NCBI GenBank assembly: GCA_045106055.1
Contig: JBGCED010000025.1
Location: forward strand, 1,835-65,834
Length of the DNA: 64,000 nucleotides
Direction: 5' to 3'
Source: Alphaproteobacteria bacterium
Lineage (GTDB): Bacteria > Pseudomonadota > Alphaproteobacteria > CBDDJK01
The position numbers and the translations under genes are program-made. The notes below the pieces were generated by a model. The model did no database searches, was not told the origin of the DNA, and worked only from the letters and a program-made list of their open reading frames with translations. Positions 30,653 to 59,708 of this stretch are shown here, in pieces (the first letter of the stretch is position 1; each line of letters starts with the position of its first letter).

Positions 30653-30655
30653 TTA

Positions 30656-32590: not shown

Positions 32591-32594
32591 GGTT

Positions 32595-33948: not shown

Positions 33949-33958
33949 ATTTTTCCCC

Positions 33959-34468
33959 TTATCTGTTTTCATCTTTGCGTAATTGATCAAGCGCAGCCCA
34001 GCCCGCCTCAAGCTGATCTGGATCTGCGGGCGAACAATCTTGAACCCATGCAAGATGGGGTTCGCTTTGGCGAATTTCAAAGGTTTCCCCGCGCCCAACA
34101 AACAAGCATTGCCCCTTAATTTGAGCATGGGTTTGAAATGATTTTGGCAATAAAAACCGCCCCGATTGGTCAAGGCTGATGCGCTGTGCTTTCGCCATAT
34201 AAAAATCTTCCATTATTTTTCGCTGTGCGCTTAAACGCGGCAATCGTGCAATGTCGCGCCCAAGCTGTTCCATATAAGGATGGTCGCATCCTTCCAAATA
34301 ATGGTTGCTGGTGGGCGATGGGTAAAGATAGAAAAATCCAAAAGGATCATCAGGATTTGAAGCCAGCTGGTCTGCCGCTTGAACAAGCCCGACACGATAA
34401 GAAGCAGGCAGCGATACACGCCCCTTGCGATCTAGCTTATTATCATAGCTGCCTGTAAATAACGCCAT
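33959..34468 (-). CDS. mraZ: transcriptional regulator MraZ
   Basis: Two MraZ/SpoVT-AbrB-like repeats (…DxxGRVxLP…) in a 169-aa protein at the first position of the division cluster. Confidence 0.9.
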   Translation of the reverse strand: MALFTGSYDNKLDRKGRVSLPASYRVGLVQAADQLASNPDDPFGFFYLYPSPTSNHYLEGCDHPYMEQLGRDIARLPRLSAQRKIMEDFYMAKAQRISLDQSGRFLLPKSFQTHAQIKGQCLFVGRGETFEIRQSEPHLAWVQDCSPADPDQLEAGWAALDQLRKDENR

Positions 34469-39819: not shown

Positions 39820-39834
39820 TCTTGTAACCCCTTG

Positions 39835-40224
39835 TTAATCGGCTGTGGTTTGATGGGGGGTAACAAAACGGCTGAAATCTTGTGCGTGATCTTTCTTGGC
39901 ATTGCCAAGCATTGATGCGCTATGGAGCGATGCACCAGGTGCTGACCCATTTGCACCAATTTCAAAATCATTATTGGGACCAAGATAAAGCACATGGTCA
40001 ACCCCATTGCAATTTACCAGCACAATGCGCCGCCTTGGGTCAAGCCCAAGGGTTTGCTTTATATATAAGGGGCGATCGGGCGATGGCTGTTGCTTGCGGT
40101 TAAGGCTTGAACGGCTTAGAAAATCACCCAGCCGCATGCCATATTTTCTAAGCCCAACCGACAATAAGCCAATTAAACCCAGCACAACCAGTAACGCCAG
40201 AAAATATCGAATATAATCTACCAT
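39835..40224 (-). CDS. fliO: FliO-like flagellar biogenesis protein
   Basis: A 129-aa protein with one N-terminal TM and an …RRRIVLV… segment, immediately upstream of fliP. Confidence 0.55.
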   Translation of the reverse strand: MVDYIRYFLALLVVLGLIGLLSVGLRKYGMRLGDFLSRSSLNRKQQPSPDRPLYIKQTLGLDPRRRIVLVNCNGVDHVLYLGPNNDFEIGANGSAPGASLHSASMLGNAKKDHAQDFSRFVTPHQTTAD

Positions 40225-43338: not shown

Positions 43339-44166
43339 ATGTCTTCAAATATCCCTAGTTTTACCATGCGCCAACTGCTTGAAGCGGGCGTGCATTTTGG
43401 TCATACAACCCGTCGCTGGAATCCAAAGATGGAACAATATATCTTTGGGGTGCGTAACGGCATTCATATCATGGATTTGGGGCAAACCGTTCCCATGCTC
43501 AATACCGCGCTTAAAGCATTATATGATGTTGCTGCTGGCGGCGGACGCATTTTATTTGTTGGCACAAAACGCCAAGCACAAATGCCATTAAAAGAATATG
43601 CGATGAATTGCGGGCAATATTATGTCAATCACCGCTGGCTTGGGGGCATGATGACGAATTGGAAAACCGTTTCAAATTCGATCAAACGCTTGAAAGAGCT
43701 TGATAAATTGCTGCAAGATGAAGAGCATAACAATAAATTAACCAAGCGCGAATTATTGGGGCTTAGCCGCCAGCGCGATAAATTAGAATTAACGCTGGGC
43801 GGAATTAAGGATATGGGCGATACGCCAAATATGCTGGTCGTGCTGGATGTGGTTAAGGATCAAATCGCGGTTCAAGAAGCAAAAACAATGGGCTTGCCCG
43901 TGATTGGGATTTTGGATTCAAACGCAACGCCAGAAGGGGTTGATTATCCAATTCCAGGCAATGATGATTCCATGCGCTCGATTAAGCTTTATCTTGAATT
44001 AATTTCGCGCACAGTGCTTGCTGGGATTGATCAATCCGTTCAAAATTCAGGGGTTGATATTGGTGAAAAACTGAATGCGTCCGAACCCGCGCTTGAAGCC
44101 ACTGCCGAAGTTGCTGAAGCCCCCGCTGCTGAAGCTTCATCAGAATCAGCTGCACCATCTGCATAA
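43339..44166 (+). CDS. rpsB: 30S ribosomal protein S2
   Basis: MRQLLEAGVHFGHTTRRWNPKM N-terminus. Confidence 0.93.
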   Translation: MSSNIPSFTMRQLLEAGVHFGHTTRRWNPKMEQYIFGVRNGIHIMDLGQTVPMLNTALKALYDVAAGGGRILFVGTKRQAQMPLKEYAMNCGQYYVNHRWLGGMMTNWKTVSNSIKRLKELDKLLQDEEHNNKLTKRELLGLSRQRDKLELTLGGIKDMGDTPNMLVVLDVVKDQIAVQEAKTMGLPVIGILDSNATPEGVDYPIPGNDDSMRSIKLYLELISRTVLAGIDQSVQNSGVDIGEKLNASEPALEATAEVAEAPAAEASSESAAPSA

Positions 44167-44200
44167 ATCAATCACTATCGGTTAAAGGAACTATAAAATT

Positions 44201-45130
44201 ATGACGATTACAGCCACAATGGTAAAAGAGCTGCGCGAAAAATCAGGCGCGGGCATGATGGATTGCAAAAAAGCATTGGCAGAAACGGATGGTGATTTTG
44301 AAGCTGCTGTCGATTGGTTGCGTAAAAAAGGATTATCGGCTGCGGCTAAAAAATCCAGCCGCATCGCTGCGGAGGGGCTTGTTGGGCTTTCATTTGATGG
44401 CACAAAAGGCGCATTGATTGAGGTGAATGCAGAAACCGATTTTGTTGCCCGCAATCAATTATTCCAAGATTTTGTGCTTAATTTGGCATCCTTGTCGGTT
44501 GCTGTGGGCGGCGTTGATGATTTGCAAGGCTTGGCTTACCCAGATACGGGGCGCAATGTTGCAGAAGAATTAACCCATAATATCGCGATGATTGGCGAAA
44601 ATATGAGCATCAGGCGTTTGGTTGCGCTTAGCGTGGAAGCGGGCGCGGTTAGCGGTTATGTTCATGCCGCAGCCGAAGGATCAAACGGCAAGCTTGGGCG
44701 CATTGGTGTGCTGGTTGCGCTTGAATCACAAGCGGATGCTGGCGCATTGGCGCAGCTTGGCAAGCAAATTGCCATGCATATTGCGGCTGCAAATCCGCGC
44801 TTTTTATCGGTTGATGAAATTAGCGAGGAAGACCGTGAGCGCGAACGCAATGTGTTGACCGAACAAGCCCGCGCAGAGGGTCGTCCTGAAAATATCATTC
44901 AAAAAATGGTTGAAGGGCGCATGCGTAAATTCCAAGAAGAGGTTGCCTTATTAGAGCAAATATTTGTGATTGATAATGAAACCAAAATTTCCGATCTGCT
45001 TGAAAAGCAAAGCAAAGAACTTGGCAGCAAGATTATATTGAAAGCATTTGCACGGTTTGAACTTGGCGAAGGCATCGAGAAAAAACAAGATGATTTTGCA
45101 GCAGAGGTCGCCGCAGCCGTCGGGGGATAA
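44201..45130 (+). CDS. tsf: elongation factor Ts
   Basis: …VKELREKSGAGMMDCKKAL… UBA-like N-terminus followed by a duplicated EF-Ts core. Confidence 0.93.
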   Translation: MTITATMVKELREKSGAGMMDCKKALAETDGDFEAAVDWLRKKGLSAAAKKSSRIAAEGLVGLSFDGTKGALIEVNAETDFVARNQLFQDFVLNLASLSVAVGGVDDLQGLAYPDTGRNVAEELTHNIAMIGENMSIRRLVALSVEAGAVSGYVHAAAEGSNGKLGRIGVLVALESQADAGALAQLGKQIAMHIAAANPRFLSVDEISEEDRERERNVLTEQARAEGRPENIIQKMVEGRMRKFQEEVALLEQIFVIDNETKISDLLEKQSKELGSKIILKAFARFELGEGIEKKQDDFAAEVAAAVGG

Positions 45131-45172
45131 TGTAAACGAAACGCGCTATAAGCACGATGTGAACGGAAAATA

Positions 45173-45979
45173 ATGCCACATGATTTAACATCATCGGATG
45201 ATGCAAGGATAGCCGCCAGAAAAAACGGCGATTCACCTTTAGGCGATGTTCGCTATAAACGCATTTTGCTTAAAATCTCAGGTGAAGCTTTGATGGGCGA
45301 TAAAGCCTTTGGCATTGATGCAGAAGCAGTTAAATTAATTGCCCAGCAAATTGGCAGTGTTTACCAGCTTGGCGTTGAAATTTGCTTGGTGATTGGCGGC
45401 GGTAATATTTTTCGCGGCATTTCAGCTGCGGCTGAGATGGAGCGCACCACCGCTGATTATATGGGCATGCTAGGCACGGTGATGAATGCGCTTGCCCTGC
45501 AATCGGGGCTTGAAAATGACGGCATTCCAACGCGTGTGCTTTCTGCGGTTCCCATGAATACGATTTGCGAACCCTATATCAGGCGGCGCGCCATGCGCCA
45601 TCTTGAAAAGGGGCGTATTGTTATTTTTGCTGCTGGCACAGGCAATCCCTATTTTACCACGGACAGCGCCGCTGCCTTGCGCGCTTCCGAGATGGAATGC
45701 GATGTGGTGATGAAAGCAACCAAAGTGGATGGCGTTTATGATAGCGATCCCAAGATTAATCCAAATGCCAAACGGTTTCAAACCATCAGCTATCAAACCG
45801 CATTGGAACGCAATTTAAGGGTGATGGATACAGCAGCAATCGCGCTATGCCGCGAGAAAAAGCTGCCGATCTTGGTGTTTTCAATGTTTGAACCCAATAG
45901 TTTTTCAAATATTGTAAGGGCAAGGGGGGCTTTCACGCAAATTATGGAATCAGCCCCCGATCACATGCCCCCCACTTAA
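45173..45979 (+). CDS. pyrH: UMP kinase
   Basis: [13 protein letters not shown] start of the conserved core and the …GGGNIFRG… motif. The roughly 25-aa leader before the core suggests the annotated ATG may be upstream of the true start. Confidence 0.9.
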
Positions 45980-45992
45980 AGATAAAGGAGTA

Positions 45993-46556
45993 ATGATAAT
46001 GAGCTTTCAAGGCGATAAAGATTTAAAAAAACGGATGGATGGCGCAACTGAAGCTTTGCAAAAGGAATTTTCAGGATTAAGAACGGGACGCGCAAGCCCC
46101 GCCTTGCTTGAATCTGTTCAAGTCGAGGCTTATGGCGGGCATATGCCATTAAAAGAGCTTGCAGGGGTTAATGTGCCAGAACCTAGAATGCTAAGTGTGA
46201 ATGTATGGGATCAAGGGCTTGTCAAGGCGGTTGAAAAGGCAATTTCAGATGCAAATTTAGGTTTAAACCCAATGTCCGAGGGCAATGTTATTCGCGTTAC
46301 CTTGCCTGAACTTACCGAAGATCGCCGCCGCGAACTTACCAAGGTTGCAGGAAAATACGCAGAAGCAGCAAGGATTGCGGTGCGAAATGTTCGCCGCGAT
46401 GGGATTGATGGGCTGCGCAAGGCAGAAAAATCAGGGGATATTGCGCAAGATCAGCTGCATCGCGGACAAGATGAGATTCAAAAAATGACCGATGCCGCGA
46501 TTGCAAATATTGATAAGATGCTGGCGGATAAAGACCAAGATATTATGCAGGTTTAA
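45993..46556 (+). CDS. frr: ribosome recycling factor
   Basis: 187 aa, with a …LRTGRASPALL… motif. Confidence 0.92.
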   Translation: MIMSFQGDKDLKKRMDGATEALQKEFSGLRTGRASPALLESVQVEAYGGHMPLKELAGVNVPEPRMLSVNVWDQGLVKAVEKAISDANLGLNPMSEGNVIRVTLPELTEDRRRELTKVAGKYAEAARIAVRNVRRDGIDGLRKAEKSGDIAQDQLHRGQDEIQKMTDAAIANIDKMLADKDQDIMQV

Positions 46557-46602
46557 GCCTTAATTTTTTAAATTTAACCATTTTGATCGCGACCCCCCTC
46601 CC

Positions 46603-47328
46603 GTGACTTATCAGGATAAAATTAAGCATATTGCCTTTATCATGGATGGCAATGGGCGCTGGGCAAAGCAGCGCGGAAAGCCGCGTATTGAGGGGCATAG
46701 AAAAGGCGCAGCTGCGCTTCGCGGCGTGATTGAAGCCGCTGCCGATTTATCCATCCCATTTGTAACTTTCTTTGGCTTTTCAACCGAAAATTGGCAACGC
46801 CCCCCCCAAGAAGTACAGGATTTAATGGGGCTATTGCGGCAGTATTTGATGTATGAGGTAAATGCGTTTCATAAGGCGGGGGCAAAATTAATTATCATTG
46901 GTCAGCGTGATCGCTTTTCAGCCGATTTGATTGAATTAATTGAAAAGGCAGAGACAAAAACAAAAGATAATGATAAAATCACCGTGGTGATTGCTTTGAA
47001 TTATGGCGCGCGCGCTGAATTGCTGCATGCCGCAAAAGAAATTTGCAAGCAAGCCGTTGCGGGTGATATAAGCATGGATGATCTTCAAGAGCAGGATATT
47101 TCCAATCTGTTATGGACAAGGGATATTCCAGATCCTGATTTGCTGATCCGAACCAGCGGCGAGCAACGGATTAGCAATTTTTTATTATGGCAGCTTGCCT
47201 ATAGCGAATTATTATTTATGGATTGCCTATGGCCCGATTTCAGCAAAGCGCATTTACAAACTGCGATGGATGAATTTTATCGCCGCAATCGCCGCTTTGG
47301 ACTTGTTGAAGAAAACCCGCCTGCTTAA
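46603..47328 (+). CDS. uppS: isoprenyl transferase (undecaprenyl-diphosphate synthase)
   Basis: HIAFIMDGNGRWA and the …FSTENW.R… motif. Confidence 0.9.
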   Translation: MTYQDKIKHIAFIMDGNGRWAKQRGKPRIEGHRKGAAALRGVIEAAADLSIPFVTFFGFSTENWQRPPQEVQDLMGLLRQYLMYEVNAFHKAGAKLIIIGQRDRFSADLIELIEKAETKTKDNDKITVVIALNYGARAELLHAAKEICKQAVAGDISMDDLQEQDISNLLWTRDIPDPDLLIRTSGEQRISNFLLWQLAYSELLFMDCLWPDFSKAHLQTAMDEFYRRNRRFGLVEENPPA

Positions 47329-47363
47329 ATCAACTTACTTAAATCAACTATGAAAGTATAAGA

Positions 47364-47786
47364 ATGATGAAAGATCAACAAACCCATTTTGCAGCCCAGC
47401 GTTCACACCGCCAGCTTAAAGTTGGTGAGGAAATACGCCATATTGTCTCTTCGTTATTTGCGCGCGGGGAATTGGCCGATCCTGCGCTTTTTGGTAAATC
47501 CTTGACGATTACCGAGGTTAAGATCAGCCCCGATCTTAAAAATGCCACCATATTTTATGTGCCATTGCTGGCGGTCAATTTTGATGCGGAAGGATTGGTG
47601 GTCATTCAAAAAGGACTTGAAAAAGTAGAGCCCTTTATTAAACGGCACATTGCAGCAAGTTTGAAAATTAGAGTGACCCCAAAATTGAAATTTAGCTATG
47701 ATCGCACTTTTGACAATATTGATGCGGTCGGTAAATTATTGAGCCACCCACGGGTTCAGGCAGATTTAACCCCACCAACAAAATAA
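47364..47786 (+). CDS. rbfA: ribosome-binding factor A
   Basis: A 140-aa KH-like fold (…RQLKVGEEIRHIVSSLF…TITEVKISPDLKNATIFY…). Confidence 0.75.
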   Translation: MMKDQQTHFAAQRSHRQLKVGEEIRHIVSSLFARGELADPALFGKSLTITEVKISPDLKNATIFYVPLLAVNFDAEGLVVIQKGLEKVEPFIKRHIAASLKIRVTPKLKFSYDRTFDNIDAVGKLLSHPRVQADLTPPTK

Positions 47787-47794
47787 TATTTTCA

Positions 47795-48754
47795 ATGAAT
47801 GATCTGCTTAAAATTCTTTCAAAATCTTTAAAGCCCTTTGGCTATCATATTGCCAGACATTCCGCCCCTGCTTTATTAAAAATTAAAAATATTGAAGCTG
47901 GGCAAGATGGCGAGCAATCGATCCTGTTTCCGCGTCACTATTTTGATGGATGCGTCTTTGACCCGCCCAGCGCGCTTGATCTTAATCATTTGAAAATTTA
48001 TTTGCGCAGCTGCATGCGCGATCACCGCAATGTGAATAAGAAAATGCGCGTTAGCGGAGATAGCGAAAATGACACGCTGCTTGCTTGTATTGCATCCTTG
48101 GTTGCTGCCGTGAATTATCTTGATCAGCAAAATCCCGCATTATCAATCGATGTGATATGTCTTGATGATCGTTCGGATGCAGGCAATCTGGCGCGCATTG
48201 ACCATATATTATCAGGGCTGAATTGCCCATGGCACATTAAGCAAACGGCGATCAGCGGGCAAGGAAAATCCCTGCATGAGCAATTTTCGCTGGCGCGCCA
48301 AGAAAAAGGGCTGTGTTATTTCATTGAAGATGATTATTTGCATGAAGTGCAGGGGATTGACAGATTATACCAATTTTACTTGAAAATCATAAATGATTTC
48401 AATGCCCATTGTGTGCTTTATACGCAAGAAAGCGATAATATTTACCATGAAGCCTATCCCTCTTATTTGTTAAAGGGGCAAGATTGCAGATGGCGCACCG
48501 TTCGCCACGCAACCCATAGTTTTTTTATCCATAGCCATTATGTCGATCATTTTTGGAAATATTTTGAAAATACAAAATATGTCGGCGTGAAGTCAAAACG
48601 GCGTGCAGGATCAGAGCGCAACACCACCAATAAATTATTCTTGCATATGCCAGGCTTCGTCCCCTTGACCCCCGCAGCCGTTCATTTGCAATTTCAAGAA
48701 ACATTGCCCCCGTTTTATGATTGGCAAGTGCTTTACAAGCTCTATCAGCAATAA
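47795..48754 (+). CDS. GT2-like glycosyltransferase with an N-terminal roughly 80-aa extension
   Basis: GT-A signature segments …LSIDVICLDDRSDAGN… (DDxSxD-like) and …CYFIEDDYL… (DxD). Confidence 0.5.
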   Translation: MNDLLKILSKSLKPFGYHIARHSAPALLKIKNIEAGQDGEQSILFPRHYFDGCVFDPPSALDLNHLKIYLRSCMRDHRNVNKKMRVSGDSENDTLLACIASLVAAVNYLDQQNPALSIDVICLDDRSDAGNLARIDHILSGLNCPWHIKQTAISGQGKSLHEQFSLARQEKGLCYFIEDDYLHEVQGIDRLYQFYLKIINDFNAHCVLYTQESDNIYHEAYPSYLLKGQDCRWRTVRHATHSFFIHSHYVDHFWKYFENTKYVGVKSKRRAGSERNTTNKLFLHMPGFVPLTPAAVHLQFQETLPPFYDWQVLYKLYQQ

Positions 48755-48756
48755 AG

Positions 48757-49113
48757 TTAGCTGCCCCGATAGGTGGAATATGAAAAGGGAGAGACCAATA
48801 ATGGCACATGATAATGCTGATTGGGATCATTGACACCAAAGAAAATCGGGATTTGATCCAGAAAATTGGGTTCAGGCAAATCCCAGCCCAGCGCTTTAAA
48901 ATAAGGTCCAACCGCAAATACAAGCTGATATTGACCAATTTCAAGGGGCTGCCCGTCAATTAAGGGGGCATCGGTGCGGCCATCTTGATTGGTAACCCCG
49001 CTTGAAATTAAAGTTGGGGCAGCGCCTTCAGCGACCTTATATAATGCATAATTCACCCCCGCAGCAGGGCGCCCGCCCGCCGTATCAAGCACATGTGTTG
49101 TTAATTTTCCCAT
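48757..49113 (-). CDS. 5-hydroxyisourate hydrolase (transthyretin-like)
   Basis: N-terminal THVLDTAGGRPAAGV and the C-terminal YRGS tetrapeptide diagnostic of HIUase; 118 aa. Confidence 0.85.
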   Translation of the reverse strand: MGKLTTHVLDTAGGRPAAGVNYALYKVAEGAAPTLISSGVTNQDGRTDAPLIDGQPLEIGQYQLVFAVGPYFKALGWDLPEPNFLDQIPIFFGVNDPNQHYHVPLLVSPFSYSTYRGS

Positions 49114-49289
49114 TCATTTCCCCATCTTTATGCTGTTTATCGTGGATTGTTTTTTATCATTATAGAACATAATTCAAAAAGTTAAACCCGTATCAGCAAA
49201 AAAACCCCAGCTTCGTTGATAAGAAAATTGAGCTTAGAAAATAAGCATTGAAAATTTTATCATTAAACCGCCTGTAAGGAGCAAAGCCC

Positions 49290-49916
49290 ATGAAACACAG
49301 CATGAAAAACAACATGAAAAACAGTATCACTTTAACCCATTCCCCCAAAACAGCTATTTCCCCCAAAACAGGTCAGGCCTTGAAAGCAATGATGCTTGCG
49401 GGGATTATGATTGGCAGCACCGCCTGCATGACTTTTGATGGCGGCAGCACCGCAGAAGGCATTGGATACCGCCAAGCGCGCTTTGCAGAAATGTCTGCGA
49501 TGAATGAATTTCGGGCATGCAAAGCAGATGGGCTTGCACTTGATGAGCAAGCAAGGCTGGATGCTTCTGGTGCAAAATATCTTGCCAGTGCTAAGATTCT
49601 TGAACAATGCGAAGCCAGTGTTGGCAGCGTTGATCAAACCATCGGCAGTGATGAACGGATGCGGGTCTATGCCTTATCCATTCAAAATTATGTAAAAGGC
49701 GGCGATATTGCAAAGGCAGCGGATAGTTTAAATCAATTCCAATCTGCTTTTCCAAATAAGGATTTATATTATGCGGATGGATCGTCTTTTATTGAAACAA
49801 TGCTGGTGATCACCCATCAAAAAGAGGATGCAAATTTCTCGGTCGCTTCAACCTTAAATGTGCCGCGCGCTTTGAAAATTGAAAAAAACCGCATTGCGCA
49901 TTGGGAAATTCATTAA
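49290..49916 (+). CDS. hypothetical exported protein, possibly a lipoprotein
   Basis: Hydrophobic …MMLAGIMIGSTAC… signal-like segment followed by a hydrophilic domain; no family recognised. Confidence 0.45.
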   Translation: MKHSMKNNMKNSITLTHSPKTAISPKTGQALKAMMLAGIMIGSTACMTFDGGSTAEGIGYRQARFAEMSAMNEFRACKADGLALDEQARLDASGAKYLASAKILEQCEASVGSVDQTIGSDERMRVYALSIQNYVKGGDIAKAADSLNQFQSAFPNKDLYYADGSSFIETMLVITHQKEDANFSVASTLNVPRALKIEKNRIAHWEIH

Positions 49917-49943
49917 TTTTTTCAAACATCATATCATTCTTGA

Positions 49944-50846
49944 TTGAGAGGAGTAATTATCATGTTAAAGAAAACGCTAATCGCGGGCGGTTTTGCCCTT
50001 TTTCTATCGGCAGCAAGCGCGCCCAGCTTTGCAAATAATACCGCAGGATCACAAGCAATATGGCAGCCAAGCGCAAGCGAGATGCTGGTGAAAATGCCAA
50101 CAGCCAGCATGCAAAAAAAGATTGAACGGGACTTTAGAAGTTCCCCGCTTGCAAGTGCGCTTCAGCAAAGCAATGTTGATTTGGGCTTAAAGCAGCAAAC
50201 GCTGGAAAGTTTAAATCAAACCCTGACCCAAACCCAAGGCGAGATGAATGTTGAGGTGCGCCATCAAATTTTAAGCCAAAAACGCGATTATTTAACCATG
50301 GTTGGCGGGCGCAACACGATGCGCAAACAAGCAGCAGAAACCAGAATCACCCTATATCGCGATTTACTGGAGAAAATGCAGATTGAAAAGCGCGGATTAA
50401 CGCCCGAAAAACAAGCCTTGATTGCCAAGCAAGAAGCAGCGCGCGCCCGCGCACAGCAAAATTATGATCTGGTTGAAACGGCTATCTTTAGCGATGGACC
50501 AGGCAAAAACAGCAAATATAATCAGGATTATAATAAAAATCAGGCTTTGATTGAACAGCTGATCGCCAAAGTCGGTCAGCATAAGGCAAATCAAAGCGCG
50601 ATGCTTGACGGCGAAGCTTTGTCAAAACAGGATTATTTAAGACAATTAATCGCAGATACCGAAGCCGATATTGCGCTTGTTGATCAGGAAAACCAAATTT
50701 TGGGGCTAATGTCAAAATTGGTTGCTTTGGATGCGATGGCATTATCCGAAGAAGTTGCAGATGCCCAAGATATGGAAGCAGGCATTGACCCAGAAGCAGC
50801 AAAAAACCCGCTGCATAATGTCGCCAATCTGTTCATTGGGGGATGA
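49944..50846 (+). CDS. hypothetical secreted Gln/Ala-rich coiled-coil protein
   Basis: Signal peptide MLKKTLIAGGFALFLSAASAPSFA (probable start at 49962), then Q-rich heptad-like sequence. Confidence 0.45.
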   Translation: MRGVIIMLKKTLIAGGFALFLSAASAPSFANNTAGSQAIWQPSASEMLVKMPTASMQKKIERDFRSSPLASALQQSNVDLGLKQQTLESLNQTLTQTQGEMNVEVRHQILSQKRDYLTMVGGRNTMRKQAAETRITLYRDLLEKMQIEKRGLTPEKQALIAKQEAARARAQQNYDLVETAIFSDGPGKNSKYNQDYNKNQALIEQLIAKVGQHKANQSAMLDGEALSKQDYLRQLIADTEADIALVDQENQILGLMSKLVALDAMALSEEVADAQDMEAGIDPEAAKNPLHNVANLFIGG

Positions 50847-50968
50847 TGAAACAGCAAAGCGGGATATAAGCATTTATCCAAGCCGAATCGGATGTTATTC
50901 TGTGAAGAGAGAAAAGACTAAAAAACAAATTTCATTATTAACCTTATGATCAATGTGAGTTTTCGGCC

Positions 50969-51370
50969 ATGATTACGCCAAAAAGTTCGCCAGCAAAGCT
51001 GCAATCCACATCTTCTAATCTACAGAATTTGTTGAATGATCTTAGCAAAATCTCAACTTCGGATTCAAAAGGAAACTCGAAGCAGGCGGAATTGACGCGT
51101 GATCCTGTTGGGCGCGATGATCCAAGAAATATTGATGAAGGAAATATGAATGCTGGCGGGGCGATGGCGCATCACTTGGAGTCGCGCATTGACCCTAATC
51201 AGGAATATATTCGCCCATCCTTTTCAAGATTTTTTGGCCGCAATGCCCCTGATCCTTTTAATCTTGCCTATGCCCTAGAGCGATTAAGCGGATTATTGCG
51301 CCAAGATGGCAATAATGGCCCGCGCCAAAATGTGCCAGCCAAAGGCTTTTATTTGAATGTTGTTTTGTGA
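50969..51370 (+). CDS. hypothetical hydrophilic protein (candidate partner of the downstream Panacea-like gene); an alternative start at the internal MNAGG with an AAGGA Shine-Dalgarno would give about 74 aa
   Basis: The ORF ends 27 nt before the next gene, and a GGGTGGGG Shine-Dalgarno for the downstream gene sits within that gap. No family recognised. Confidence 0.35.
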   Translation: MITPKSSPAKLQSTSSNLQNLLNDLSKISTSDSKGNSKQAELTRDPVGRDDPRNIDEGNMNAGGAMAHHLESRIDPNQEYIRPSFSRFFGRNAPDPFNLAYALERLSGLLRQDGNNGPRQNVPAKGFYLNVVL

Positions 51371-51397
51371 TTCTTAAAAGCGGGTGGGGTTTAAAAA

Positions 51398-51907
51398 ATG
51401 CGGCCAGCGGTTGATAATACATTGATGATTGCCTTGTGGCTTGAAGATCGCGCACGGGAAGATCAGGTGCGGTTAAGCCCGCAGCATCTTCATCAATTAT
51501 TATATTTGCTGCAAACGATCTATGCGCTGGATTTTAAGGGTCAAATGCTGATGCCAGCCCAGTTTGTTGCCTTTAAAGACGGGGTGCGCGAACCAACCCT
51601 TTATGCCGTGATGAGCGAATTGAATTTTTTTGATGATCCGCTGCCATTGCCAGCGCAGATATTGCAATTTTTGGAACAGTTTTGGGCAAAATTTAACGAA
51701 AAATCCGAAGCGATGCTGATCAAAGAAATTAAGAAACACCCCCCCTATGATCAGGCAATATCCAAAGGCACAGGCGCGTTAATTGCTTTTGAAGAAATTG
51801 CAGAACATGCCCGCCAGCATAAAATATCAACCCATGTTAAGGTTGCAGATGGTCGCAAATTGCCGCGCTGGACACCTGAACGCCATCTTGCTGCCGCAAA
51901 ATCCTAA
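51398..51907 (+). CDS. DUF4065/Panacea-domain-like protein (SocA/GepA family, putative antitoxin)
   Basis: N-terminal …NTLMIALWLEDRAREDQVRLSPQHLHQLLYLLQTIYALDFKGQMLMPAQFVAFKDGVREPTLYAVMSEL… follows the Panacea pattern (…A.yfL…lt.LKLqKLLYyaQ…L…g.pLf…feAW.hGPV.p.vY…). Confidence 0.45.
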   Translation: MRPAVDNTLMIALWLEDRAREDQVRLSPQHLHQLLYLLQTIYALDFKGQMLMPAQFVAFKDGVREPTLYAVMSELNFFDDPLPLPAQILQFLEQFWAKFNEKSEAMLIKEIKKHPPYDQAISKGTGALIAFEEIAEHARQHKISTHVKVADGRKLPRWTPERHLAAAKS

Positions 51908-52066
51908 AGTTTATATTATATCTATAATCATAGATATGGAGCATTCCCGCCTTAGATTGTATATTCGGTTGACAAGCAATCAATTTTGTATTTATGATAG
52001 AGTTTAGCTTATTTTTTGTATGGAAGCATCAAACAACATCATTGTAAAAAAAACGGGAGAGAATTT

Positions 52067-53086
52067 ATGAAAAAACTATTGATAGCGGCAGCAATTGCGA
52101 TTGTTAGCACATCTGGATCAGCGCTTGCTGATGGTCACAATATAAGCGCTTGCTTGATTACCAAGACGGATACCAATCCCTTTTTTGTAAAAATGCGTGA
52201 AGGTGCGGCTGCCAAAGCAGAAGAGCTTGGCATCACTTTAAAAAGCTATGCAGGGAAGATCGATGGCGATAATGAAAGCCAAGTCGCGGCGATTGAAACA
52301 TGTATTGCAGATGGTGCATCTGGTATTTTATTAACCCCATCAGATACGGCGGGGATCGTGCCATCGGTTGAACAGGCAAAAGATGCAGGGCTGTTGGTCA
52401 TTGCACTTGATACACCGCTTGATCCAATTGAAGCCGCGCATGCAACCTTTGCAACAGATAATTTTCTGGCGGGCGAATTGATTGGGCAATATGCTGCTGC
52501 TGCGCTTGGTTCGCAGGCTGCAAACGCGAAAATTGCTATGCTTGATCTGGCGATTAATCAGCCAACCGTTGGGGTTCTGCGCGATCAAGGCTTTTTACAG
52601 GGATTTGGCATTGATCTTGGCGATCCCAACAGATGGGGCGATGAAACAGATGCTAGGATCATCTGTAATGAAGTCACCGCTGGCAATGAAGAAGGCGGGC
52701 GCACAGCCATGGAAAATTGCTTGGCGCAAGACCCAATGATTAATGTGGTTTACACCATCAATGAACCTGCAGCAGCAGGTGCTTATGAAGCGCTTCGGGC
52801 AGTTGGGCGTGAAAATGATGTTATGGTTCTGTCGGTTGACGGCGGATGCCCTGGCGTTCGAAATATAGCAGATGGCGTGATTGCAGCAACTTCACAGCAA
52901 TATCCCTTATTGATGGCATCGCTTGGCATTGAAGCGATTGTGAATTTCGCAAAAACGGGAACGCTTCCGACCAATACGCCAGGCAAAAATTTCTTTGATA
53001 CAGGTGTATCTTTGGTTGCTGCGAACCCTGTTGACAATGTTGATAGCATCGATGTTGCAACAGGCATAGATATGTGCTGGGGGTAA
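52067..53086 (+). CDS. sugar ABC transporter periplasmic binding protein (PBP type I, FrcB/RbsB-like)
   Basis: Signal peptide [21 protein letters not shown], then a type-I periplasmic binding fold. The track ORF starts at 52016, but the signal peptide begins at 52067. Confidence 0.78.
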
Positions 53087-53121
53087 TTTTTTTTAAAAGA
53101 CTTAGCAATGGTTTCTAAGAC

Positions 53122-53150
53122 GGTGGAAGCGATAAATATTCGCTTCCACC
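53122..53150 (+). promoter_or_regulatory. intercistronic stem-loop (10-bp perfect stem ggtggaagcg/cgcttccacc, 9-nt loop) between the binding-protein and permease genes
   Basis: Seen directly in the sequence. Confidence 0.5.
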
Positions 53151-53217
53151 CCATATCATTAACCAATGATATAAAAATCATTAGGCGGCAATAGGGGCAA
53201 TTAGGGAAGGGGTTTAA

Positions 53218-54312
53218 ATGTCATCACCGCAAGATTCATCATCGCAAGATTTTGAAAAGGCAGCATCTGGCGCATCCGATGACATTGCTGATTTTAAAAA
53301 ACATCACAATCTTTATCATCGGGGATTTGTTGGTCGGTTGCAACATGCCTTGCATGCAACCCCTGCTTTGATTCCGCTTATTGTTTTAATCTTTGCGATT
53401 GCGTTGTTTGGCATTTTGTTGGGTTCAAAATTTTTCTCACCCTTTGCTTTAACGCTGATTTTGCAACAGGTACAGATCGTTGGCGTGCTGGCTGCTGCGC
53501 AAACTTTGATTATTCTAACTGCGGGCATTGATCTTTCGGTTGGTGCAATCGCCGTATTTTGTATGGTCGTGATGGGGCAGTTTAGCTTTCGTTATGGCAT
53601 TCCAGCGCCGATTTCCGTTGCTTTGGGGCTGGCGGTTGGCACGGGACTTGGCGCAATCAGTGGCTGGTTGGTCAGCCGTGTTAAGCTTCCCCCATTCATT
53701 GTGACCTTGGGGATGTGGCAAATCGTGTTGGCTGCAAATTATTTATATTCTGCGAATGAAACATTGCGCAGTCAGGATATTGCAGAAAAGGCAGCATTTC
53801 TTCAATTCTTGGGAAGAAAAATAACATTTGGCGGTGCAACTTTCACATTTGGCGTCATTTTGATGGTTGTCTTGGTCTTCATTCTTGCTTATGTGCTTCG
53901 CTCGACGGGGTGGGGGCGTCATGTATATGCGGTGGGGGATGATCCCGAAGCGGCTGAACTTGCAGGGGTGAATGTGCATAGAACCCTGATGTCTGTATAT
54001 ATGCTGGCTGGCTGCATTTGCGGGTTGGCTGCTTGGGTGATGATTGGGCGCTTTGGTTCTGTTTCCCCTTCTGCATCAACCGGTGTTATTGGTAATATTC
54101 AGGCAATCACCGCCGTGGTGATTGGGGGGATTTCGCTTTTTGGGGGGCGCGGATCAATCGTTGGTGCGTTCTTTGGGGCGCTTATCGTGGGGGTGTTCGA
54201 GCTTGGCTTGCGTATGGCTGGGGCTGACCCGCAATGGACTTTTATGTTAATTGGCATGTTGATTATTGGGGCGGTCACCGTTGATCAATGGATTAGAAAG
54301 GTGACGGGATGA
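53218..54312 (+). CDS. sugar ABC transporter permease (RbsC/FrcC-like)
   Basis: A 364-aa polytopic protein with a C-terminal …GGISLFGGRGSIVGA… motif of the CUT2 permeases. Confidence 0.82.
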   Translation: MSSPQDSSSQDFEKAASGASDDIADFKKHHNLYHRGFVGRLQHALHATPALIPLIVLIFAIALFGILLGSKFFSPFALTLILQQVQIVGVLAAAQTLIILTAGIDLSVGAIAVFCMVVMGQFSFRYGIPAPISVALGLAVGTGLGAISGWLVSRVKLPPFIVTLGMWQIVLAANYLYSANETLRSQDIAEKAAFLQFLGRKITFGGATFTFGVILMVVLVFILAYVLRSTGWGRHVYAVGDDPEAAELAGVNVHRTLMSVYMLAGCICGLAAWVMIGRFGSVSPSASTGVIGNIQAITAVVIGGISLFGGRGSIVGAFFGALIVGVFELGLRMAGADPQWTFMLIGMLIIGAVTVDQWIRKVTG

Positions 54313-55079
54313 TGGTTGAACCCATTCTTTCAGCAGCAGGTCTGGTCAAGCATTATGGTCGCGTCACGGCGCTTGATCATTGTGATTTTGAATTGATGCC
54401 CAATGAAATTTTGGGGGTGATTGGTGACAATGGTGCAGGAAAATCGACTTTAATTAAAGCCCTTTGTGGCGCAGTCATTCCTGATGGCGGTCAGGTTTAT
54501 TTTGATGGCCAGCGGGTATCTTTTCAATCTCCGATTGACGCGCGCAAACATGGCATTGAAACGGTTTATCAAACCCTTGCGATGAGTCCTGCGCTTTCCA
54601 TTGCGGATAATATGTTTATGGGGCGCGAATTACGCAAAAGCGGGATCATGGGATCGGTATTTAGGCAACTTGATAAAAAACGGATGCAAGCATTTGCGCG
54701 TGAAAAGCTTTCTGAATTGGGATTGGCAACCATTCAAAACATTAATCAAGCAGTTGAAACGCTTTCAGGGGGGCAGCGACAAGGGGTTGCGGTGGCACGC
54801 GCGGCTGCATTTGGATCAAAAGTGATCATCTTGGACGAGCCTACGGCGGCGCTGGGCGTTAAGGAAAGCCGCCGTGTTTTGGATTTAATCCAAGATGTGA
54901 AATTACGCGGCATTCCGATCATCTTGATCAGTCACAATATGCCCCATGTTTTCGAGATATGTGATCGTGTCCATATTCATCGTCTGGGCAAGCGACTAAT
55001 GGTTATCAACCCCAAAGAACATACAATGTCCGATGCCGTTGCCTATATGACGGGCGCAAAATCCCCAAATGAAAAATAA
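54309..55079 (+). CDS. sugar ABC transporter ATPase, single NBD (FrcA-like)
   Basis: Walker A GDNGAGKST, signature LSGGQRQGV, Walker B ILDEP; 256 aa. Confidence 0.88.
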   Translation: MMVEPILSAAGLVKHYGRVTALDHCDFELMPNEILGVIGDNGAGKSTLIKALCGAVIPDGGQVYFDGQRVSFQSPIDARKHGIETVYQTLAMSPALSIADNMFMGRELRKSGIMGSVFRQLDKKRMQAFAREKLSELGLATIQNINQAVETLSGGQRQGVAVARAAAFGSKVIILDEPTAALGVKESRRVLDLIQDVKLRGIPIILISHNMPHVFEICDRVHIHRLGKRLMVINPKEHTMSDAVAYMTGAKSPNEK

Positions 55080-55969: not shown

Positions 55970-57856
55970 TTATAGCTTTGTGATTGGGGTGCAGGCAGTT
56001 AACAGCCAATTATAATCTTTTATATCAAGCTGATCCTTGTAAAGATCAAGAATGCTTTGGTGATAGCGATTAACCCATGCGCATTCTTCGCTTGATAATA
56101 AGGCTGGATCAATCAGCTTCAAATCATAAGGTGCTTTTGTTAGCTGGATAAATTGCAACATATCCGAATTTGGAACAGGGACAACCATGATTAAATTTTC
56201 AATTCTGATCCCATAATGCCCTTTTCTATATAGGCCAGGTTCATTTGAAACCACCATGCCGCTTTGCAGATGCACTTCATTCGGGCGGGCAGCGGAAATT
56301 CCTTGCGGCCCTTCATGCACATTTAAATAGCTGCCAACGCCGTGCCCAGTGCCGTGGGCATAATCATTGCCGCTGTTCCAGATTGCGCTGCGGGCTAGAA
56401 TGTCAAGCTGGCTTCCCTTGGTTGTGTTGGGAAATTTCTGGCGCGCAATCGCGATATGCCCTTTTAATACCAAAGTATAATCTGTGATCATCGCATTGCT
56501 GGGTGTGCCAATCGCGATGGTGCGGGTAACATCGGTCGTGCCGTCCAAATATTGACCACCAGAATCAAGCAGCAATAATTCACCATCTTGAAGGGTGCGG
56601 TTGCTGTTTTGATTTGCACGATAATGCACAATCGCACCATGCGCGCCAGAACCTGCAATGGTGTCAAAGCTGTTTCCTTGAAATAAGGGCTGTTTTTGCC
56701 TTAATTGATATAGAAAATCGGTCAATTCCAATTCATCAGGCAAATTATTTGCTAGGCTGCGCTCTTTAAGCCAGTGCATGAATTGAATAAGCGCCATGCC
56801 ATCATGCTTATGGGCATTGATCATGCCCTGCTGTTCTTTTTCATGCTTTGTTGCGCGCGGCACAAGGATCAAATCATCGCCATAAAGGATATCTGTTTGT
56901 TTATGCGCGGATAATGCTTGGGAAATTGCATCAGAAGCCGTGGTCGGGTCAAGGAATATTCGAATTTTCTTAGATGTTTCTGGCGCGCCAAATAAGGCAT
57001 CTAGCTGTGCTTGAAATTGATCAATATCCATGATTGAAACGCATTCAGGCAGCAAGCTTTGATCAAATCCAGTTAATTTTTCAGGCGCAATGAACCAGCA
57101 AAGCGCGCCCGTAGCCGACAGAATTCCGCGCGATAAGGCAAGCGGGCAGTTTGGCACATCATCGCCGCGAATATTAAGCAGCCATGCAAGCTGGTCTGGC
57201 GCATTGATGATCGTATAATCCGCATTTTTCTTGCCCAGCAGCAAAGTGATTTGCGTTATTTTTTCATCTGCGCTGCGCCCTGCATAGCGCAAGGGCTGTG
57301 ATTTTACGCGCCCAAGCGGCGGGGCAGGGCGGTTTTCCTGCCAAATATGATCAATCGGATTGCTTGTTAAGGGGGTAAGCTTGCCGCCCGCCTTTTCAAT
57401 TAAGTCCTTTAATTTTCGCGCAGTTCCAATGCTAAACAGCCATGGATCATAGCCAATGACGGCTTTGGGGGAGAATTTTTTACGGATAAAATCTTCAATT
57501 GCTTCGGGTTTCCACGGCGCGCTTTCCATGATGGCAGGGTCAATTTCAGCCTCTGCTTGAATGTCATAACGCCCATCCACAAACAGGCAGCTTTTTGTAA
57601 GCCCAATGATGGCAAGCCCCGCAGAACCCGTAAAGCCTGTTATAAATTCCAAACGCTCGCTATGGGCAGGGACATATTCGCCCAGAAATTCATCCGAACG
57701 CGATAGGATAAATCCATCAATTTGCTGCTGTTTTAAGTGTTCGCGCAGGGCATTGATGGCATTAAAAGATAAAGACTGATTGGACGCATTTGCTTGATCC
57801 TGCATGATCAGCGCATCCGTTTTTTGGTTTTGGCTTCCCAATAATTGCCAAGCCAT
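55970..57856 (-). CDS. M24B Xaa-Pro aminopeptidase, three-domain form
   Basis: HGTGHGVGSYLNVHEGP and …SNEPG.Y… pita-bread motifs; 628 aa. Confidence 0.82.
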   Translation of the reverse strand: MAWQLLGSQNQKTDALIMQDQANASNQSLSFNAINALREHLKQQQIDGFILSRSDEFLGEYVPAHSERLEFITGFTGSAGLAIIGLTKSCLFVDGRYDIQAEAEIDPAIMESAPWKPEAIEDFIRKKFSPKAVIGYDPWLFSIGTARKLKDLIEKAGGKLTPLTSNPIDHIWQENRPAPPLGRVKSQPLRYAGRSADEKITQITLLLGKKNADYTIINAPDQLAWLLNIRGDDVPNCPLALSRGILSATGALCWFIAPEKLTGFDQSLLPECVSIMDIDQFQAQLDALFGAPETSKKIRIFLDPTTASDAISQALSAHKQTDILYGDDLILVPRATKHEKEQQGMINAHKHDGMALIQFMHWLKERSLANNLPDELELTDFLYQLRQKQPLFQGNSFDTIAGSGAHGAIVHYRANQNSNRTLQDGELLLLDSGGQYLDGTTDVTRTIAIGTPSNAMITDYTLVLKGHIAIARQKFPNTTKGSQLDILARSAIWNSGNDYAHGTGHGVGSYLNVHEGPQGISAARPNEVHLQSGMVVSNEPGLYRKGHYGIRIENLIMVVPVPNSDMLQFIQLTKAPYDLKLIDPALLSSEECAWVNRYHQSILDLYKDQLDIKDYNWLLTACTPITKL

Positions 57857-58569
57857 TGGTCAAATTTTAATTCCAATGTATCTTTTAACACGGCTGGCAT
57901 GAAATAATAAAAGCGCCCTTGATAATTTTGGGGCTGGCTGATGAATTGCCCAAAATGGCTATACATAGAAAGACTATGGTCAATCGCGGTCAAGGCGCGC
58001 TCTGTAAAAAGGGATCTAAGCTCGATTAAACTTGTCTTTTTGCTTGGCGTATAATGATATTTCAATATTTTTGATCCCCATTGCCGTTCTGGTAGGATCA
58101 AATTAATACAGGCTGCCATATTGCTAAAATCACCGTGAAACGCCGCCCAATAGACCGTATCAAGCCCTGAATAATGTTCTGTGTCGGTTGCAACCACATT
58201 AATCACGGACCTTGGCGCAAGATTTAACAGCGGTGCATCAAGCCGCCCAACCCCAAGCGCAATGATAATATCAGGCGCAGCCTTGGTAAGGGCTTCAATG
58301 CCTTCTGGTTGATTGCAGTTTAACAATTTAAGGTGATTGGCAACTTTAAATTCAGGCGTTTCTTTTTTAAACCATAATTTTTGTTCATAAGCAGCAACCT
58401 TATCATCCAAGGCAGCTCTGGTTTGGTAATTCACGCTAATTTGGCGCACTTCTTCGATCAATAGCACCACATTATAATGTTCCGCCAGAAAATTCGCCAT
58501 ATAGATTTGGTGATTTCTTTTGCTTGTTAAAAGCGCAATTCTTAGTTTTTTATTATTTTGATTCATCAT
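57808..58569 (-). CDS. formyltransferase-fold protein (the canonical catalytic His is not evident)
   Basis: …RIALLTSKRNH… Rossmann-like start and …INVVATDTEHYSGLDTVYWAAFHGD…, which resembles the formyltransferase NxHxSLLPxxRG…wA…G block but has Val in place of His. Confidence 0.4.
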   Translation of the reverse strand: MMNQNNKKLRIALLTSKRNHQIYMANFLAEHYNVVLLIEEVRQISVNYQTRAALDDKVAAYEQKLWFKKETPEFKVANHLKLLNCNQPEGIEALTKAAPDIIIALGVGRLDAPLLNLAPRSVINVVATDTEHYSGLDTVYWAAFHGDFSNMAACINLILPERQWGSKILKYHYTPSKKTSLIELRSLFTERALTAIDHSLSMYSHFGQFISQPQNYQGRFYYFMPAVLKDTLELKFDQWLGNYWEAKTKKRMR

Positions 58570-58709
58570 ATCGCGCTTAATAAAGGGTTGCTTCTATGGT
58601 TTTGTGACATATTATTTGGATATAAGTAAAGTATTTAGCACAATATTTGTCAATATATATTTACATAATATATATTAAAAATAGGATTTTAAGAAAGTGA
58701 TTTTTAAGC

Positions 58710-59708
58710 ATGGTTGATTTAACCTTTGTTGAAACGCAGCTGGAGACATTGATTGCTGAAAAAGGAATGAATATCCATAAAAGCAGATTTTTAAAACCCT
58801 TTGCGCTGATGCCGCAAGAAACTCCGCCCTTATTTTTTTATCACACGCCAAAGGCAAGCGGCAATGCGTTGATCGTCGCGATTCAAGGGGCGTATTTGGG
58901 GCATGCGGTATTGCATCATCAAAATGCGGATTTGGCATATAATCGCTTTGATGTTTTAAATGCAGAAAATGCACTGGCGCGTAAGCTTCCCTTTAAATTC
59001 ATTGCGTCCCATTTGCCGTTTGGGGTGCATCATCATTTTAATCATTATGATTATGATTTAATGGCATGTTTGCGCGATCCTGTGACGCGGGTTAAATCGG
59101 CTTATGCCTATGAAATGATGCGTCAGGATTGGACGCCAGAAGCCGATGATTTTCAAGATTATATCAAAGATCCTTCGAATCAAAATATTACAGCATTGCA
59201 ATTTGCAGGCATTGCTTCAAGCAAAGCGCATTTAAGATCAATCAGCGATGATGCTTTATTTGAGCTTGCGCTGGAAAATCTGGATCAATGCCGCTATGTG
59301 CTAACTTCAAAAGACATTCATGCTTTTATTGAATATTTTATCTCGGCGCATGGTCTGCCCAATGTCATATCAACCAGAATGAATGTCACGCTTCCCAAAT
59401 ATATTGCTGATTTTAGCGCATTTGATGATCAAATTGCGGTGCTTAATCAAGTGGATTTAAGGCTGTTTGAACATATATCCAAGCAAGGGAACAGGGAATT
59501 TTTAAAACAGGAAGCGGCATTAGCAATATCGCCCTTTCATCATCCCGCTTTTGCGCTGTGTTTTGACATTCAATCTTCGGTTAAGATGGAGGGCAAGATT
59601 CATTTTGCCCATGAAGATAATCTGGAAGCGGCGCTGTTATCAGGCAATCATTATGATGATTTTCAAAGCTTTTGCCAGCACGAGATTATACCGCGCAACA
59701 AGGCTTGA
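58710..59708 (+). CDS. PAPS-dependent sulfotransferase-family protein
   Basis: 5'-PSB-like FFYHTPKASGNAL and 3'-PB-like LRDPVTRVKSAYAY motifs; 332 aa. Confidence 0.55.
   Translation: MVDLTFVETQLETLIAEKGMNIHKSRFLKPFALMPQETPPLFFYHTPKASGNALIVAIQGAYLGHAVLHHQNADLAYNRFDVLNAENALARKLPFKFIASHLPFGVHHHFNHYDYDLMACLRDPVTRVKSAYAYEMMRQDWTPEADDFQDYIKDPSNQNITALQFAGIASSKAHLRSISDDALFELALENLDQCRYVLTSKDIHAFIEYFISAHGLPNVISTRMNVTLPKYIADFSAFDDQIAVLNQVDLRLFEHISKQGNREFLKQEAALAISPFHHPAFALCFDIQSSVKMEGKIHFAHEDNLEAALLSGNHYDDFQSFCQHEIIPRNKA

Follow-up and report, generated by a model that had tools for sequence, protein, structure and literature searches.

A gene-order break after uppS in an uncultured alphaproteobacterium, probably filled by rearrangement of native chromosome

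Introduction

The closest described counterpart of the locus studied here is the canonical cluster dnaE..rpsB-tsf-pyrH-frr-uppS-cdsA-dxr-rseP-bamA-skp(ompH)-lpxD-fabZ-lpxA-lpxI-lpxB, and the usual operon of rbfA is a different one, nusA-infB-rbfA-truB. We analyzed a window (the whole stretch of DNA under study, 64,000 nt) that corresponds to positions 1,835-65,834 of contig JBGCED010000025.1 (assembly GCA_045106055.1, Alphaproteobacteria bacterium, lineage CBDDJK01). The DNA is chromosomal and comes from an uncultured alphaproteobacterium, on a contig derived from a metagenome-assembled genome (MAG), with a coding G+C content of about 46%. The window shares the first five genes of the canonical cluster in order and orientation, and differs from it in everything past uppS; upstream of rpsB it has the atp F0 operon and not dnaE. 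After uppS, at 47330-51907, come rbfA, a glycosyltransferase gene, a 5-hydroxyisourate hydrolase (HIUase) gene and four open reading frames (ORFs), the last of which encodes a diverged Panacea-domain protein. How did these genes come to lie here? An original prediction took the segment for an accessory patch at a rearrangement or insertion hot-spot. We conclude that the 47.3-51.9 kb segment is probably native chromosome, the product of old intragenomic rearrangements in a deep-branching and poorly sampled lineage in which gene order has generally eroded.

Two of the gene families involved have been described elsewhere. HIUase genes of the cytoplasmic type are usually found in purine operons and those of the periplasmic type are not, and Salmonella retains an HIUase without a uricase (PMC3528726). 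About half of Panacea proteins are encoded in conserved two-gene loci with extremely diverse toxins, and the domain has a central helix, five helices around it plus a small sheet of three strands, with a GPV motif in strand beta-2 (PMC8832971).

The gene-order break after uppS

Four relatives were compared at the uppS junction. Three of them (L069, L111 and L112) have the order dnaE..rpsB-tsf-pyrH-frr-uppS-cdsA-dxr-rseP-bamA-ompH-lpxD-fabZ-lpxA, and because the canonical order is kept in three of the four, the break in our window, which the original prediction had noted, is derived as well as real. None of cdsA, dxr, rseP, bamA, ompH and lpxD was found anywhere in the 64-kb window. In the fourth relative, L068, the block also ends at uppS, and the next genes are H+-PPase-SpoU methylase-HPr-MsrA-LplA, none of which occurs in the window. 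L068 is by far the closest relative sampled (RpsB 82%, Frr 77% and Tsf 66% identity, versus about 60% for the others), and the cut of the uppS-cdsA link probably predates the split from it. The junction has thus been used more than once, with different occupants in two lineages. L068 and the closest glycosyltransferase homolog come from one assembly, ERZ25074195, and the L068 UppS cluster and the locus of that homolog both trace to the 2.47-Mb chromosome OZ245897.1.

The features of the conserved block and of the segment that follows it are these (+ and - denote the strand):

43339-47328, +: conserved block rpsB-tsf-pyrH-frr-uppS (Pfam; the same five genes in relatives L068, L069, L111 and L112)
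43339-44166, +: rpsB (strong Pfam match)
44201-45130, +: tsf (strong Pfam match)
45173-45979, +: pyrH (strong Pfam match)
45993-46556, +: frr (strong Pfam match)
46603-47328, +: uppS (strong Pfam match), final gene of the block, marking the breakpoint
47364-47786, +: rbfA (PF02033 79.8 bits, TIGR00082, NF001802), 35 bp past uppS
47795-48754, +: glycosyltransferase of 319 residues with a predicted GT-A fold (homolog clusters, motifs, model), 8 bp past rbfA
48757-49113, -: HIUase of 118 residues (PF00576, TIGR02962), its stop 2 bp from the glycosyltransferase stop
49114-49289, no strand: divergent intergenic region of 176 bp between HIUase and ORF208 (ORF map)
49290-49916, +: ORF208, predicted lipoprotein (lipobox-like motif in translation)
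49944-50846, +: ORF300, predicted exported, coiled-coil-rich protein (signal peptide in translation)
50969-51370, +: ORF133, small orphan protein, ending 27 bp 5' of ORF169
51398-51907, +: ORF169, diverged Panacea (SocA-like, DUF4065) domain protein (transitive homology to PF13274, model)
52016-55079, +: sugar-type ATP-binding cassette (ABC) transporter with binding protein, permease and ATPase (Pfam Peripla_BP_4, BPD_transp_2, ABC_tran), the downstream boundary

Each gene call at 47330-51907 was rechecked against Pfam, NCBIfam or structural models, and the gene list given originally proved accurate. Intergenic gaps across the patch are tight in the ORF map (35, 8, 2, 27 and 27 bp).

Could the junction be a chimera of assembly or binning? 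A contig from a metagenome assembly, such as this one, leaves room for that. Against this, four independent short-read contigs from three runs, evidently of the same population, span pyrH-frr-uppS-rbfA-glycosyltransferase-HIUase-ORF208-ORF300 in the same order at 98.9-99.8% nucleotide identity. Since independent assemblies repeat the gene order, a chimera is hardly credible. All of these same-population contigs (99% identical) carry the patch, and the next relative is too distant for a presence/absence comparison. The original prediction had reasoned that an order conserved across the family would be ancestral; the order uppS-rbfA-glycosyltransferase-HIUase is not kept at the distances that could be sampled, about 53-60% protein identity, the best non-self UppS in the database search being 60% and the best non-self glycosyltransferase 53% identical.

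The uppS junction is not the only place where gene order has changed. The upstream neighbor of the block varies as well, being the atp F0 operon in the window versus dnaE or RNase HII in relatives. The dcw cluster (16208-34468, - strand; mraZ, mraW ... ddl, ftsQ, ftsA) ends at ftsA (17386-18633), after which the window has no ftsZ, a convergent phosphopentomutase gene standing there instead; it is a second normally conserved cluster broken in the same window. A shortened dcw cluster together with a variable upstream neighbor points to genome-wide shuffling rather than to a single local hot-spot.

Composition and mobility marks

An inserted island might be expected to stand out from its surroundings, and the original prediction called for a profile of GC skew and codon adaptation across the segment. 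Composition and codon usage turned out native: by G+C content, G+C at third codon positions and synonymous-codon likelihood, all seven patch genes fall within 1.4 standard deviations of the window mean (63 genes, 56 of them outside the patch), and the sliding G+C profile is flat over 47-52 kb. No integrase, transposase or other recombinase domain was found in the scanned ORFs, and the window contains no tRNA or tmRNA gene and no Rfam element. Flanking direct or inverted repeats did not exceed the chance level, and the terminator scan likewise gave chance-level results only. PADLOC returned no matches. The notion of an accessory insertion is thus not borne out, and rearrangement of native chromosome is the likelier reading.

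The sole compositionally deviant stretch near the patch is at 57808-59708, with a G+C content of 0.37-0.38 in 1-kb windows. It holds ORF253 (57808-58569, - strand, G+C 0.404) and ORF332 (58710-59708, + strand, G+C 0.412), compared with a gene mean of 0.461 and a standard deviation of 0.020, and neither has a Pfam match. As a candidate island, this stretch ranks above 47.3-51.9 kb.

A glycosyltransferase family with a predicted GT-A fold

The glycosyltransferase ORF gave no Pfam match even at E 10, PF00535 included, and no NCBIfam match. A database search detected 77 homolog clusters with 38-53% identity, of about 316 residues (nearly all 307-336) and nearly all from alphaproteobacterial MAGs; a cluster 100% identical to the window protein is also present. 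A few of the homologs bear the name glycosyltransferase in their source records, and for some there are weak precomputed matches to PF00535. What, then, is the basis for the assignment? The AlphaFold model (mean predicted local distance difference test score, pLDDT, 90.6; predicted template modeling score, pTM, 0.89) has a GT-A Rossmann-like fold, which Foldseek matches with probability 1.00 to SpsA, TarP, TarS, GlcAT-P, MGAT2, K4CP and GtrB. The matches to structures in the PDB are weak in detail (E 1.7e-6 and up, template modeling score, TM, about 0.42, identity about 12%), and a comparison of the family profile with PDB sequences is marginal (TarS, E 0.013).

An alignment of 52 family members shows the motifs that would be expected of such an enzyme. 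In LDDRSD, D124-D125-x-S127 is invariant in all 52; in the DxD-type motif EDDYLHE, E178 is invariant and D179-D180 are at least 90% conserved. In GT-A enzymes, motifs of these two kinds bind the nucleotide and provide the DxD-type site. The Met-Asn start is also invariant and a long C-terminal region is conserved. Because the first core strand of the model begins only at residue 65, the helical N-terminal extension of about 60 residues is real, and the original description of a GT2-like enzyme with such an extension holds as a statement about the fold. Compared with SpsA (1h7q), TarP (6h21) and TarS (5tzi), the protein shares the GT-A fold, the N-terminal motif DD.SD for nucleotide binding and an EDD of DxD type, and it differs from them in its low identity, in the missing PF00535 match and in its extra, family-specific helical N-terminal extension. 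No membrane span is predicted. On the model, we take it to be a member of a distinct, uncharacterized GT-A family.

A genome scan with the family alignment gave 62 loci, from Micavibrio-like bacteria, Candidatus Finniella and unclassified alphaproteobacterial MAGs, along with some dubious gammaproteobacterial labels. None of the 62 has rbfA, uppS, the HIUase gene or any of the four unassigned ORFs within 10 kb. The commonest context, in 21 of 49 loci, is ntrYX | ispDF-pgpA-cinA-glycosyltransferase | SRPBCC-lipA, and the two next-closest homologs (51-52% identity) also lie in the order ispDF-pgpA-cinA-glycosyltransferase, which is likely to be the ancestral position. Ten loci read yidC-mnmE-x-GT9-glycosyltransferase with another GT9 heptosyltransferase-like gene nearby, and in three the gene follows three ABC binding-protein paralogs. 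In the closest relative a metallo-beta-lactamase-fold gene precedes it, and it faces formate dehydrogenase. These contexts suggest a vertically held clade gene that has moved repeatedly. Its lipid-related and lipopolysaccharide (LPS)-core neighbors elsewhere suggest that the enzyme probably makes an envelope glycoconjugate.

MAGs labeled Gammaproteobacteria, Enterobacteriaceae and Thiotrichaceae (L036-L044, L048, L052-L053) hold the gene by yidC-mnmE and GT9 genes. Either the family reaches past the Alphaproteobacteria or these taxonomic labels are unreliable.

rbfA and 5-hydroxyisourate hydrolase

That uppS is followed by rbfA, as originally described, is clear from family matches above cut-off (PF02033 79.8 bits against 34.7; TIGR00082 58.3 bits against 51.15) and from NF001802 at 132.9 bits. 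Its neighbors in the window are uppS and the glycosyltransferase gene, not those of nusA-infB-rbfA-truB, and no Pfam-scanned ORF of the window contains a nusA, infB or truB domain. In none of the relatives' loci examined was rbfA found within 10 kb of either uppS or the glycosyltransferase gene, and a scan of the genome collection with RbfA alone matched no relative. The gene thus appears displaced from its usual nusA-infB neighborhood. The 8-bp gap suggests that rbfA and the glycosyltransferase gene are probably co-transcribed.

The HIUase matches PF00576 (123.8 bits) and, over its full length and at equivalog level, TIGR02962 (130.3 bits, the cut-off being 87.45), and is about 57% identical to alphaproteobacterial uraH. 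Like UraH/PucM (TIGR02962), it has the catalytic residues His7, Arg46 and His100/His102, read from the translation, the C-terminal Y115-R116-G117-S118, and no signal peptide in the translation; by sequence it is a bona fide cytoplasmic enzyme. The prediction of a convergent HIUase ending in YRGS was accordingly upheld by the family matches and by the 2-bp gap to the glycosyltransferase gene. It differs from UraH/PucM in lying outside any purine-catabolism operon, a placement that is mildly atypical because cytoplasmic members usually sit in such operons (PMC3528726). Uricase, OHCU (2-oxo-4-hydroxy-4-carboxy-5-ureidoimidazoline) decarboxylase and allantoinase are missing from the Pfam-scanned ORFs of the 64-kb window, four dcw-cluster genes being outside the scan, and it is for this range that the HIUase has no uricase or OHCU decarboxylase partner; as an orphan of the whole genome it is a candidate only. 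The 176-bp region at 49114-49289 probably serves as promoter region for both the HIUase gene and ORF208; it contains a promoter-like site at 49235-49263, on weak evidence, and has no Rfam match.

Some 31-48 kb away from the HIUase gene, at 14048-17389 and 175-708, the window has genes for nucleoside salvage. They encode a member of the purine/uridine phosphorylase family, thymidine phosphorylase, phosphopentomutase and a phosphoribosyltransferase, and none of them a urate-oxidizing enzyme.

Two predicted exported proteins

The two exported proteins of the original prediction, said to be without family assignment, were also found as described. ORF208 has a lipobox-like ..MLAGIMIGSTAC, and ORF300, which is coiled-coil-rich and whose translation probably begins at the ATG at 49962, has the signal peptide MLKKTLIAGGFALFLSAASAPSFA, both read by eye from the translations. 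Neither gave a significant match in Pfam, NCBIfam, PADLOC or PHROGs or a plasmid match, and neither has a homolog in 1.27 Mb of relatives' loci. ORF208 differs from its counterpart in a same-population contig (L004:1765-2370) by 18 nt in length and is 95.7% identical to it in amino acid sequence, with flanking genes 100% identical. It is the most variable gene in the population, which fits a surface-exposed protein.

Several candidate relationships were discarded. A match of ORF208 to Phe_hydrox_dim (21.9 bits) is below cut-off and was treated as spurious. ORF300 might have been a Skp/OmpH protein left over from the lost bamA-skp segment, but with no Pfam OmpH match at E 10 that idea was rejected. 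Upstream of the Panacea pair (see below), relatives have lipoprotein, 17-kDa antigen and hydrolase genes, of which ORF208 and ORF300 could have been the counterparts; neither shows similarity to them.

A diverged Panacea protein and its upstream neighbor

ORF169 gave no direct Pfam match, falling short of the PF13274 gathering score of 25.7; its sole direct family matches are phrog_1281 (E 2.6e-7) and SocA NF047745 (E 0.007). An exhaustive HMMER search found 165 representative homologs. Of 60 aligned homologs, 22 match PF13274 (SocA_Panacea), and two relatives pass the gathering score (27.2 and 25.9 bits). ORF169 would therefore belong to the Panacea family by transitive homology only, and it is by this route that the predicted Panacea module after the exported ORFs is recovered. 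Its model (pLDDT 92.3) has helices at residues 8-21, 28-45, 66-77, 86-99, 104-112, 115-122 and 131-140 and strands at 56-59, 62-64 and 127-129, in agreement with the published Panacea topology, and the motif strand lies at residues 62-64. At the position of the GPV signature ORF169 has G62-V63-R64 and its own family G-P-[M/I/R/Q], so that the signature itself is not present. Beyond the Panacea domain the family has a C-terminal DGR..W.P tail, in which W158 and P160 are invariant in the closest 11 members. A PDB fold search with the model found no comparable structure. The best match among predicted viral (phage) protein structures has a TM of 0.66/0.75, and phage and plasmid homolog searches found none.

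ORF133, 27 bp upstream, is a protein of 133 residues with a low-complexity N-terminal half. Among 5.8 billion proteins the only homolog found was ORF133 itself, and it has no Pfam, NCBIfam, PADLOC or PHROGs match and no match to a toxin fold or family. What do relatives of ORF169 have in this position? A metagenome scan with the three closest ORF169 sequences yielded no loci. A scan seeded with more distant members yielded 40 marine and lake loci, the closest homologs (51%, 44% and 38% identity) not among them. A Panacea-like gene was called in 33 of the 40, and a same-strand partner of 139-150 residues with a disordered N-terminal half lies upstream in 15 (c1) and 4 (c24). In 12 loci there is a small ORF by the pair, mostly between the two genes, and where scanned this is a mini flagellar-rod protein (PF00460 and PF06429). 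Upstream of the pair, genes for a lipoprotein, a 17-kDa-antigen lipoprotein and an alpha/beta hydrolase recur, and an ABC transporter is often found downstream. A neighborhood that recurs across contigs is in keeping with vertical inheritance on the chromosome and not with a mobile cassette.

Compared with PanA/PanT and SocA/SocB of Caulobacter, ORF169 shares the domain fold and has a small gene immediately upstream. It differs in scoring below the Pfam threshold, in having GVR for GPV and in its extra DGR..W.P tail; its partner, an orphan, has no toxin domain, and its relatives lie in conserved chromosomal contexts, some with the mini-rod gene inserted. By its location, ORF133 appears to occupy the position of a partner or toxin, and ORF169 most likely binds and controls it. 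That the two form a toxin-antitoxin pair is possible rather than probable; the alternative is an adaptor/chaperone pair.

ORF133 as a homolog of the c1/c24 partner family was rejected, with 0.7 bits for the full-length hidden Markov model (HMM) and a score with the C-terminal HMM that 155 of 2000 shuffled sequences reached as well. The mini flagellar-rod protein, of about 107-130 residues with an N-terminal Flg_bb_rod and a C-terminal Flg_bbr_C motif, is found on marine/lake alphaproteobacterial contigs at L109:2909-4513, L095:3024-4555 and L102:2985-4528. No other flagellar gene was recognized within 4 kb on either side of it in these three. The C-terminus of the partner of about 145 residues aligns loosely with the rod C-terminal motif.

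How did the junction arise?

Why not an accessory island that was acquired horizontally and inserted after uppS? Four of the seven genes are without family assignment, ORF133 is an orphan, Panacea-domain genes are often tied to mobile toxin-antitoxin loci (PMC8832971), and the patch genes are missing from the same position in all four sampled relatives. An origin of this kind is nevertheless very unlikely in view of the native composition and codon usage, the lack of integrase, tRNA and repeats, the tight, operon-like gene spacing, and the presence in the patch of rbfA, a housekeeping gene, and of a clade-wide glycosyltransferase; phage and plasmid homologs of ORF169 and plasmid homologs of ORF208 and ORF300 are also lacking. 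A narrower version has more to recommend it: ORF133-ORF169 would be a PanAT-type toxin-antitoxin cassette, active and mobile, whose toxin is encoded upstream, and would mark the patch as accessory. The pair has two genes and a 27-bp gap, ORF169 has the predicted Panacea fold and transitive membership in the family, and two-gene loci with very diverse toxins account for about half of the known Panacea proteins (PMC8832971). We nonetheless regard it as doubtful, since ORF169 fails PF13274 and has GVR instead of G-P-V, ORF133 is half low-complexity and resembles no toxin fold or family, the relatives lie in conserved syntenic neighborhoods rather than patchy mobile ones, and phage, plasmid and PADLOC searches gave no matches.

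Alternatively, selection and not shuffling could have brought uppS, rbfA and the glycosyltransferase gene together as a functional unit, in which the glycosyltransferase would act on a polyprenyl-phosphate- or lipid-linked acceptor and would have been recruited twice, to uppS and to ispDF-pgpA. The 35-bp and 8-bp gaps suggest a single transcript, the gene follows ispDF-pgpA-cinA in 21 of 49 loci, and GT9 heptosyltransferase-like LPS-core genes flank it in 10 more. On the other hand, rbfA intervenes without any tie to envelope synthesis, the enzyme has no predicted membrane span, and its place in the closest relative, after a metallo-beta-lactamase-fold gene and beside formate dehydrogenase, is as unrelated to lipids as other contexts such as the three ABC binding proteins; with so many contexts, two that relate to lipids could be a coincidence. 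We judge a selected unit quite unlikely and favor rearrangement of native chromosome. Several points weigh against this choice all the same. "Relocated" is judged for rbfA from the textbook operon and not from its position in relatives, and the lineage-specific status of ORF208 and ORF300 is drawn only from family libraries and the 1.27 Mb of relatives' loci. The age of the arrangement and its conservation within the family are gauged only against database relatives at about 53-60% protein identity (82% for RpsB). Finally, the composition data are compatible with an old horizontal transfer that may since have ameliorated to the host's composition.

If native rearrangement is correct, the ancestral uppS-cdsA-dxr-rseP-bamA link would have been cut, probably before the split from the closest sampled relative, and different genes would have arrived at the junction in each lineage. 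Here it would have taken in the relocated housekeeping gene rbfA, and the clade-wide GT-A glycosyltransferase, elsewhere located after ispDF-pgpA-cinA, would have joined it, probably to be co-transcribed with rbfA. The other arrivals would be a cytoplasmic HIUase transcribed alone from the opposite strand, the two putative lineage-specific envelope proteins, and the diverged Panacea protein with its small upstream partner, which it most likely binds and controls, be it in the manner of a toxin-antitoxin pair or as an adaptor. The ORF169 family would be inherited in stable chromosomal contexts.

What does this mean beyond the locus? In deep, sparsely sampled lineages a broken textbook cluster with unannotated ORFs can resemble an island; here it is probably native, rearranged chromosome. 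The analysis also yields a well-delimited, structurally confident GT-A family with either ispDF-pgpA-cinA or GT9 heptosyltransferases as neighbors, according to lineage, and points to one branch of the Panacea domain whose genes appear to lie in stable chromosomal contexts beside a disordered partner, and not in mobile toxin-antitoxin cassettes. Current understanding is overturned by neither. Jointly, that the 319-residue protein is the founding member of a distinct GT-A family and that the ORF169 family is a use of the Panacea domain outside toxin-antitoxin systems, is unlikely. If both were true, the first family, found mainly in Micavibrio-like, Finniella-like and other alphaproteobacteria and marked by an invariant N-terminal module, may build an envelope or LPS-core glycan, and the second, inherited vertically on the chromosome, would act as adaptor or chaperone of a partner that evolves fast and is largely disordered, with a mini flagellar-rod link in relatives.

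Other features of the window

Besides the genes discussed above, the Pfam scan identified the atp F0 operon (b and b' subunits), SURF1, the dcw cluster and fliP in the window. A promoter-like site with a strong score was found by the promoter scan at 51969-51998, ahead of the ABC transporter that bounds the patch. At 39031-40224, fliP alone (39031-39819, - strand) and an ORF of 129 residues without assignment separate the atp F0 operon from an oligopeptide-type ABC transporter; the flagellar genes therefore appear scattered.

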